From Escherichia coli (GTDB lineage: Bacteria; Pseudomonadota; Gammaproteobacteria; Enterobacterales; Enterobacteriaceae), in the NCBI RefSeq assembly GCF_045037415.1, contig NZ_CP173438.1: a DNA stretch of 64,000 nt; one strand, 5' to 3'. Shown one piece after another: positions 23,421 through 24,075 of the stretch. A program made the translations under genes and the position numbers. Position 1 is the first letter of the stretch; each line of letters begins with the position of its first letter. The notes beneath the pieces are model-generated. The model saw only the letters and a program-made list of their open reading frames with translations, did not search any database and was not told the origin of the DNA.

Positions 23421-23655
23421 TTCTTCATTAGGGAATTCAGGGAATTGAACATCAAAACAGGGATGTGCGCTTTTTTATTGAGCTTAGTGCTGCCTGCACA
23501 GGCCACCAGCTTTACCGAATATCTGCCAATGAGTGACAGCGAATACGCGCAAAAGCGGGCGCTGAAACCTCTCCTGACCATGCCTTATGATGCCGAGCAA
23601 ACCTGGCATTTTAGAAAAGTGGGCGTCTGACACGTTACTACAGAGAGAACAAAGA

Positions 23656-24075
23656 ATGACTGCTAATGCTGCACGCGCTGTTAAAGCAACAAGAGAACTG
23701 GTCAATGCAGTCCCCTTTCTGGGAGGCAGTGACTCAGAAGATGATTACCGTGAAGCACTGGAACTGGTCGAATATTTGATTGAAGAAGATGATACTAATC
23801 CACTTATCGACTTTCTGGCGAGCCGCATTGCAGAATATGAAAACAATAACGAAAAGTTTGCAGAGTTCGACAAAGCCGTTGCAGCAATGCCTGTTGGTGT
23901 GGCGTTACTTCGCACGCTGATTGATCAACATAATCTGACCTATGCAGATTTGAAGAACGAAATCGGCTCTAAATCCCTGGTCAGCCAGATTTTATCTGGA
24001 CAACGTTCCCTGACGATATCCCACATTAAGGCACTTTCAGCCCGATTTGGCGTTAAGCCGGAATGGTTTCTTTGA
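23656..24075 (+). CDS. HigA-like antitoxin / Xre-family HTH protein (C-terminal HTH), no cognate toxin gene found
   Basis: 139 aa from MTANAARAVKATRELVNAVPFLGG...; strongly resembles E. coli HigA (YgjM) pattern VAPFLAG..ALELV..L...DP.NPL.D......I..E....EF..F.......G.A..RTL.DQ..LT..DL..EIGSKS.VS..LSG.R.LT..H.K.L..RFG. (my recollection); longer in-frame ORF from 23587 possible. Confidence 0.75.
   Translation: MTANAARAVKATRELVNAVPFLGGSDSEDDYREALELVEYLIEEDDTNPLIDFLASRIAEYENNNEKFAEFDKAVAAMPVGVALLRTLIDQHNLTYADLKNEIGSKSLVSQILSGQRSLTISHIKALSARFGVKPEWFL

Follow-up and report, generated by a model that had tools for sequence, protein, structure and literature searches.

An orphan higA gene downstream of hycI in Escherichia coli, probably left behind by deletion of its partner toxin gene higB

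The higA gene that follows the formate hydrogenlyase (hyc) operon in this 64,000-nucleotide stretch of Escherichia coli DNA, referred to here as the window, is very probably the orphaned antitoxin gene of a decayed type II HigB/HigA toxin-antitoxin (TA) module, which lost its toxin through a 1,035-bp deletion and is now a harmless leftover. A preliminary description of this DNA had offered three readings of the gene: that it encodes an orphan antitoxin-type regulator, that it remains from a decayed TA pair, or that its product partners a noncanonical toxin. Alleles that retain higB, together with the mapped deletion, support the second reading and with it the first; the third is rejected, since the small open reading frame (ORF) upstream of higA proves to be a cut gene.

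The last gene of the hyc operon, hycI, occupies 22953-23420 on the + strand, as assigned from the ORF list and the annotation of identical genomes. A 235-bp gap (23421-23655) separates its stop at 23420 from the higA ATG at 23656, and the ORF map confirms the earlier account of this gap, in which the sole + strand ORF is a 61-codon frame with a TTG start (23445-23630). An in-frame ATG at 23587 lies upstream of the higA start at 23656, and its use would lengthen higA. Many complete genomes, including that of an O25b:H4-ST131 strain, are 100% identical to the window over 23350-24700. The RefSeq annotation of these genomes lists a 61-amino-acid (aa) hypothetical protein as WP_001312049.1 and the higA product as a "HigA family antitoxin" under WP_000126294.1. 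A hypothetical protein of 145 aa is encoded convergently, with hydN and hypF farther downstream and no asc operon.

The higA gene (23656-24075, + strand) encodes an intact 139-aa antitoxin/repressor of the K-12 type, in which a helical N-terminal domain precedes the HTH_3 domain at the C terminus. In a phmmer search of the PDB, residues 9-138 align to residues 8-136 of K-12 HigA/YgjM (5ifg_B, E = 2.5e-35), with the N-terminal 84 residues aligning to the N-terminal domain of that protein, and Pfam places the Xre-type HTH_3 domain at residues 85-138 (E = 7.9e-9). The YgjM-type layout with a C-terminal HTH, which the preliminary description had read from the letters, is confirmed by these two results. 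That description had also proposed a family check of the HTH protein; the match to HigA extends over its full length and, judged by sequence, the window protein is a full-length homolog of K-12-type (YgjM-like) HigA. Against the NCBIfam model of the short Proteus/Vibrio-type antitoxin (TIGR02607, antidote_HigA) it scores 14.4 bits, below the cutoff of 47.7; it belongs to the K-12 type and not to the short type.

We searched a set of 5,426 complete E. coli genomes in distant mode with 23421-24166 as the query. The match breaks at query position 207 (window 23627), and its right-hand part overlaps, in many genomes, a gene annotated as a HigB family toxin. We mapped the break against strain EcPF5 (L003), in which hycI is followed by a hypothetical gene of 251 aa and, after a spacer of 162 bp, by higB (103 aa), higA, a 142-aa convergent gene, and hydN. 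In this alignment, window 23300-23624/6 corresponds to L003 2638-2965 and window 23627-24700 to L003 4001-5065; the intervening 1,035 bp (L003 2966-4000) are cleanly deleted from the window. The junction falls at 23626/23627, with GGCGT on its left and CTGACACG on its right.

Truncated genes flank the junction on both sides. On the left, 23463-23626 (+ strand) holds codons 1 to 55 of the 251-aa gene, including its ATG at 23463 and a signal-peptide-like N terminus, and the encoded residues match WP_001305268.1 save for allelic differences. The 251-aa protein has a single tblastn match in the 64-kb window (23463-23660, E = 3.5e-33). The TGA at 23628-23630 is created by the junction itself, and PGAP calls the remnant as the 61-aa TTG ORF at 23445-23630. 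The full-length 251-aa protein belongs to no Pfam or NCBIfam family, and the 61-aa ORF likewise has no match in either collection. On the right, comparison with L003 3965-4045 identifies 23627-23659 (+ strand) as the tail of higB, comprising its last 10 codons (LTRYYRENKE) and stop. These 33 nt, CTG ACA CGT TAC TAC AGA GAG AAC AAA GAA TGA, carry the ribosome-binding region of higA and overlap the higA start codon as ATGA.

This tail is all that we detect of the toxin gene. A TBLASTN search for HigB fragments, which the preliminary description had suggested, was run permissively with the cognate HigB over the whole 64 kb and matched only 23627-23659; neither the ORF map nor tblastn reveals a HigB/RelE-like ORF in 23421-23655 or elsewhere in the window. 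The window thus lacks the intact toxin gene that stands beside the antitoxin gene in a type II TA module. The earlier statement that no frame has RelE/HigB-like features holds for a toxin gene as such and needs correction for the 10 surviving codons and stop, a tail too short to be recognized without an intact allele for comparison.

These comparisons show how the locus decayed. The ancestral order, which other E. coli strains retain, is hycI, the 251-aa gene, the higBA promoter, higB, and higA, with the 4-bp overlap of the TA pair. In the lineage of the window, one 1,035-bp deletion took out the promoter region of higBA together with codons 56-251 of the upstream gene and codons 1-93 of higB, leaving the truncated 61-codon ORF, 33 nt of higB with the higA ribosome-binding site, and an intact higA.

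The same comparison bears on the proposal that HigA is partnered by a noncanonical toxin, encoded either by the 61-aa ORF or by the convergent 145-aa gene. The small ORF does lie directly upstream of higA, and the hydrophobic N terminus reported for it is real; as the mark of a toxin this feature falls away, because it is the signal-peptide-like start of the truncated 251-aa gene. With a stop codon made by the deletion and no family match, the 61-aa ORF is ruled out as a toxin. The 145-aa gene (24167-24604, - strand) is convergent with higA and separated from it by a hairpin, and it is not tied to the presence of higB: it adjoins higA whether or not higB is there, and in other HigA-bearing strains ascB replaces it. 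We consider a noncanonical partner extremely improbable. The 145-aa gene occupies the place held by the asc operon in K-12 and encodes an acidic protein with the N terminus MGSWGMEALESDEGLD; NCBIfam and PADLOC scans gave no match to it, and Pfam gave only a weak one (DUF4259, E = 0.014).

Intact alleles at the same chromosomal site retain what the window lacks. In L003, L007, and L012, higA lies directly downstream of higB and overlaps it by 4 bp, as expected for a K-12-type HigA; this arrangement is absent from the window. The partner toxin is a true HigB, matching K-12 HigB (PDB 5ifg_A) with E = 7.4e-22. The hyc-linked pairs of Nissle 1917-type and O26:H11 strains (WP_000547555.1/WP_000547559.1 with WP_000126294.1/WP_000126293.1) have a HigA identical to that of the window or one residue off, and they keep higB and its promoter region, whereas the window is without these 1,035 bp.

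We next counted these forms among the 5,426 complete genomes. An 80-nt probe spanning the window's junction matches over its whole length in 830 of them, approximately 722 of which share the asc-less downstream context of the window; in L005 and L006 the same junction is followed by ascB. As for the toxin gene, 1,092 of the 5,426 genomes carry it at the hyc locus, with the 251-aa gene in some cases (L003, L007) and without it in others (L012). L004 has the 251-aa gene and no higBA, and K-12 has neither between hycI and hydN. As a whole, the hycI-hydN interval (window 23421-25016, compared with L002-L007, L009, and L012) is structurally hypervariable, with at least seven arrangements that mix presence and absence of the 251-aa gene, higB, higA, the ascGFB operon, and the 142- to 145-aa convergent gene.

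A second toxin-less form is found in strain UTAK-10 (L002), which keeps the 251-aa gene. Relative to L007, this form lacks 412 bp, including the promoter region and most of higB, and has a 13-bp filler in their place. Its different left end, the filler, and a right end displaced by 6 bp indicate that the deletion arose independently of that in the window. The right ends lie at window 23627 and L002 3334 (L007 2501 versus 2495), which leaves 33 and 39 nt of higB, respectively, and the ribosome-binding site of higA survives in both forms. This form adds approximately 590 genomes with an orphan higA, a figure derived by subtraction (1,416 minus 830) rather than by a direct count. By a rough estimate, two right ends within 6 bp of each other have a chance expectation of a few per cent; their proximity may stem from selection to keep higA translatable or from a hotspot of breakage. 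In UTAK-10, the 251-aa gene and ascB (L002 2543-3297 and 3901-5326) are annotated as frameshifted pseudogenes, so gene decay at the hyc locus extends beyond higB.

With the deletion, the window lost the native higBA promoter region, which presumably included the operator. The best promoter-like site upstream of intact higB (TTGTGA-17-TATAGT, L003 3622-3650) lies within the deleted stretch, and an inverted-repeat search of the intact promoter region yielded no convincing operator. A promoter scan of the remnant returned only chance-level sites, such as CTGAAA-18-TATGAT at 23562-23591 (9 of 12 matches), and the total number of sites equals the shuffled expectation. Because its native promoter is gone, higA would be transcribable only from upstream, with hyc read-through and the promoter of the remnant gene as the two possible sources. 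The terminator scan finds no terminator-like site on the + strand between hycI and higA, and the RNA fold of this interval is no more stable than that of shuffled sequence (z = +0.82), in agreement with the earlier remark that no obvious terminator follows hycI. Read-through from hyc into higA is plausible and would be the only obvious route of transcription. The first terminator-like site downstream of hycI on the + strand lies beyond higA, at 24130-24151. It is part of an element at 24096-24158, recognized by folding and the terminator scan, in which a REP-like palindrome (identified by eye) precedes a GC-rich hairpin (AAGGGCGC...GCGCCCTT) and GTTTGT. The fold of 24070-24170 reaches -38.4 kcal/mol (z = -3.85), and the structure sits between the convergent higA and 145-aa genes.

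Such read-through raises the question of whether higA has been domesticated as the gene of a transcription factor, placed under hyc control (FhlA, formate, anaerobic conditions) and encoding a regulator of other chromosomal genes. HigA of Pseudomonas has been reported to regulate genes outside its own operon, and in the window the HTH domain is intact and higA runs in the same direction as hyc, without an intervening terminator-like site. We nevertheless regard domestication as very unlikely, given that the search of the intact promoter region yielded no convincing operator, the appearance of both toxin-less forms as simple deletions rather than rewiring, and the complete absence of the gene from many strains. 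A broader version, in which higA was selected and rewired because two deletions ending 6 bp apart left it to hyc read-through, as a standing antidote to plasmid HigB or as a regulator, strikes us as improbable.

We return to the preferred reading, a harmless leftover of TA decay, and to what the protein could still do. O26:H11 (L007) and L012 encode a HigA identical to that of the window, there paired with an intact HigB, and from this identity the window protein should still bind its cognate HigB and operator DNA. With no cognate toxin in cis, the only plausible activity left would be in trans, in the neutralization of a related HigB, for example, one on an incoming plasmid. The higA alleles differ from each other at 7 to 13 nucleotides, nearly all of them synonymous (dN/dS of at most 0.05), a level comparable to that of hycG in the same strains, and those with the shared junction resemble one another no more than they resemble the paired alleles. 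In hycG/hycH (window 21786-22957 versus L002, L003, L005, L006, and L007), dS is patchy and ranges from 0 to 0.22. This pattern indicates that recombination is frequent around the hyc locus and that the region is a mosaic, and low dN/dS is for that reason not assignable to the time after the deletion. L005 offers a local example of the patchwork, with an hycH that equals that of L003 at synonymous sites and an hycG that differs from it.

An activity in trans is the basis of the main rival explanation, in which orphan HigA was selected as an anti-addiction antitoxin that neutralizes a plasmid-borne or paralogous K-12-type HigB and so spares the cell postsegregational killing. An anti-addiction role of orphan antitoxins has been discussed (PMC7354431). 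Consistent with such a role, two independent deletions have left the higA ORF intact in approximately 1,400 genomes, together with the last 33 to 39 nt of higB and the ribosome-binding site; the protein is identical to paired alleles, with dN/dS of at most 0.05; plasmid HigB/HigA pairs with up to ~78% identity are widespread in Enterobacteriaceae; and strain 98194, whose hyc locus is identical to that of the window, also has an intact K-12-type higBA. Several observations argue in the other direction. The gene's own promoter is deleted, the constraint on higA may predate the deletion or stem from recombination, and other E. coli strains have lost higBA completely, which implies that retention is not required. 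The K-12-type pair shares only 46% (HigA) and 39% (HigB) identity, making cross talk doubtful. The plasmid relatives are mostly from Klebsiella, with 63 to 83 matching Escherichia plasmids in PLSDB, and just nine plasmid places are matched among the complete E. coli genomes. On balance, we view anti-addiction as possible and less favored, and decay of the TA pair without a retained function as the better account.

Comparison with known systems places the orphan gene among several relatives. The K-12 HigB/HigA pair (YgjN/YgjM; PDB 5IFG, 5YCL, and 6KML) resembles the hyc-linked pair in having the toxin gene first, a 4-bp overlap, a HigB of ~104 aa, and a HigA of ~138 aa whose helical N-terminal domain is followed by an HTH at the C terminus. 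It is a paralog, with the identities given above measured against the pair of strain 98194, and it lies between fadH and rlmG; in contrast, the window higA lies downstream of hycI, with its toxin gene and promoter deleted. In strain 98194 (L011), the intact K-12-type higBA is found at 19526-20253, between rlmG and fadH. The rlmG-fadH site carries neither higB nor higA in 5 of 30 spread rows sampled (~1/6).

Plasmid-borne higBA pairs of Klebsiella, Enterobacter, Leclercia, and other genera have the same gene order and are, at best, ~78% identical in both proteins. These are complete addiction modules, whereas the window has the antitoxin alone, on the chromosome. In PLSDB, more than 500 plasmids with higBA fall in the 60 to 80% identity band. 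These come mainly from Klebsiella, Enterobacter, and Leclercia, and E. coli contributes few.

The pair also shows a partial likeness to the phage defense system PD-lambda-2. In PADLOC scans of the intact pair (L003 3722-4449), HigB matches PD-Lambda-2_A (E = 1.2e-15), and the PD-Lambda-2_B profile of 402 positions is matched by HigA over its N-terminal ~115 positions (9-115; E = 2.4e-14). PD-lambda-2 consists of three genes, with a C-terminal peptidase domain in B and a third component that is required for defense (Vassallo et al. 2022; PMC9519451). The hyc-linked HigA has 139 aa and no peptidase domain, the intact alleles have no third gene, and the A component is deleted in the window; the locus does not constitute a PD-lambda-2 system. 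The intact hyc-linked pair might act in phage defense, in which case the lineage of the window would have lost such a role.

Orphaning of higA has precedents at another locus. An orphan higA has been described at the fadH-rlmG site in CFT073 and NRG857c (PMC7232551), and B2/ST131 E. coli strains are rich in orphan antitoxins (PMC10790755). The CFT073 and NRG857c genes resemble that of the window in that the toxin was lost and HigA kept; locus and paralog differ. The hyc-linked orphan higA is not described in the literature that we found on orphan antitoxins or higA, and it is an ordinary case of an already recognized mode of TA decay, in a gene already annotated as belonging to the HigA family. 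To our knowledge, loss of the toxin first is the only viable order in which a TA pair can decay. Because the toxin must go first, orphan antitoxins are the expected intermediate.

These results bear mainly on annotation, and we attach little importance to the locus beyond its correct naming. The 61-aa "hypothetical protein" of hundreds of RefSeq genomes is a deletion-truncated fragment and not a candidate toxin, and the "HigA family antitoxin" at the hyc locus has no partner toxin. The locus does provide a clean and well-populated natural case of toxin-first decay, with an intact form and two independently orphaned forms in one species, and these forms could help to test whether orphan antitoxins protect against plasmid addiction.

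Beyond the TA remnant, an Rfam scan of 22900-25100 returned nothing credible. A perfect palindrome with a 12-bp stem (ATGTCATCGACA CTAG TGTCGATGACAT) lies in the intergenic region at 24897-24924, approximately 90 bp upstream of hydN; it was flagged by the terminator scan and looks more like a candidate protein-binding site.
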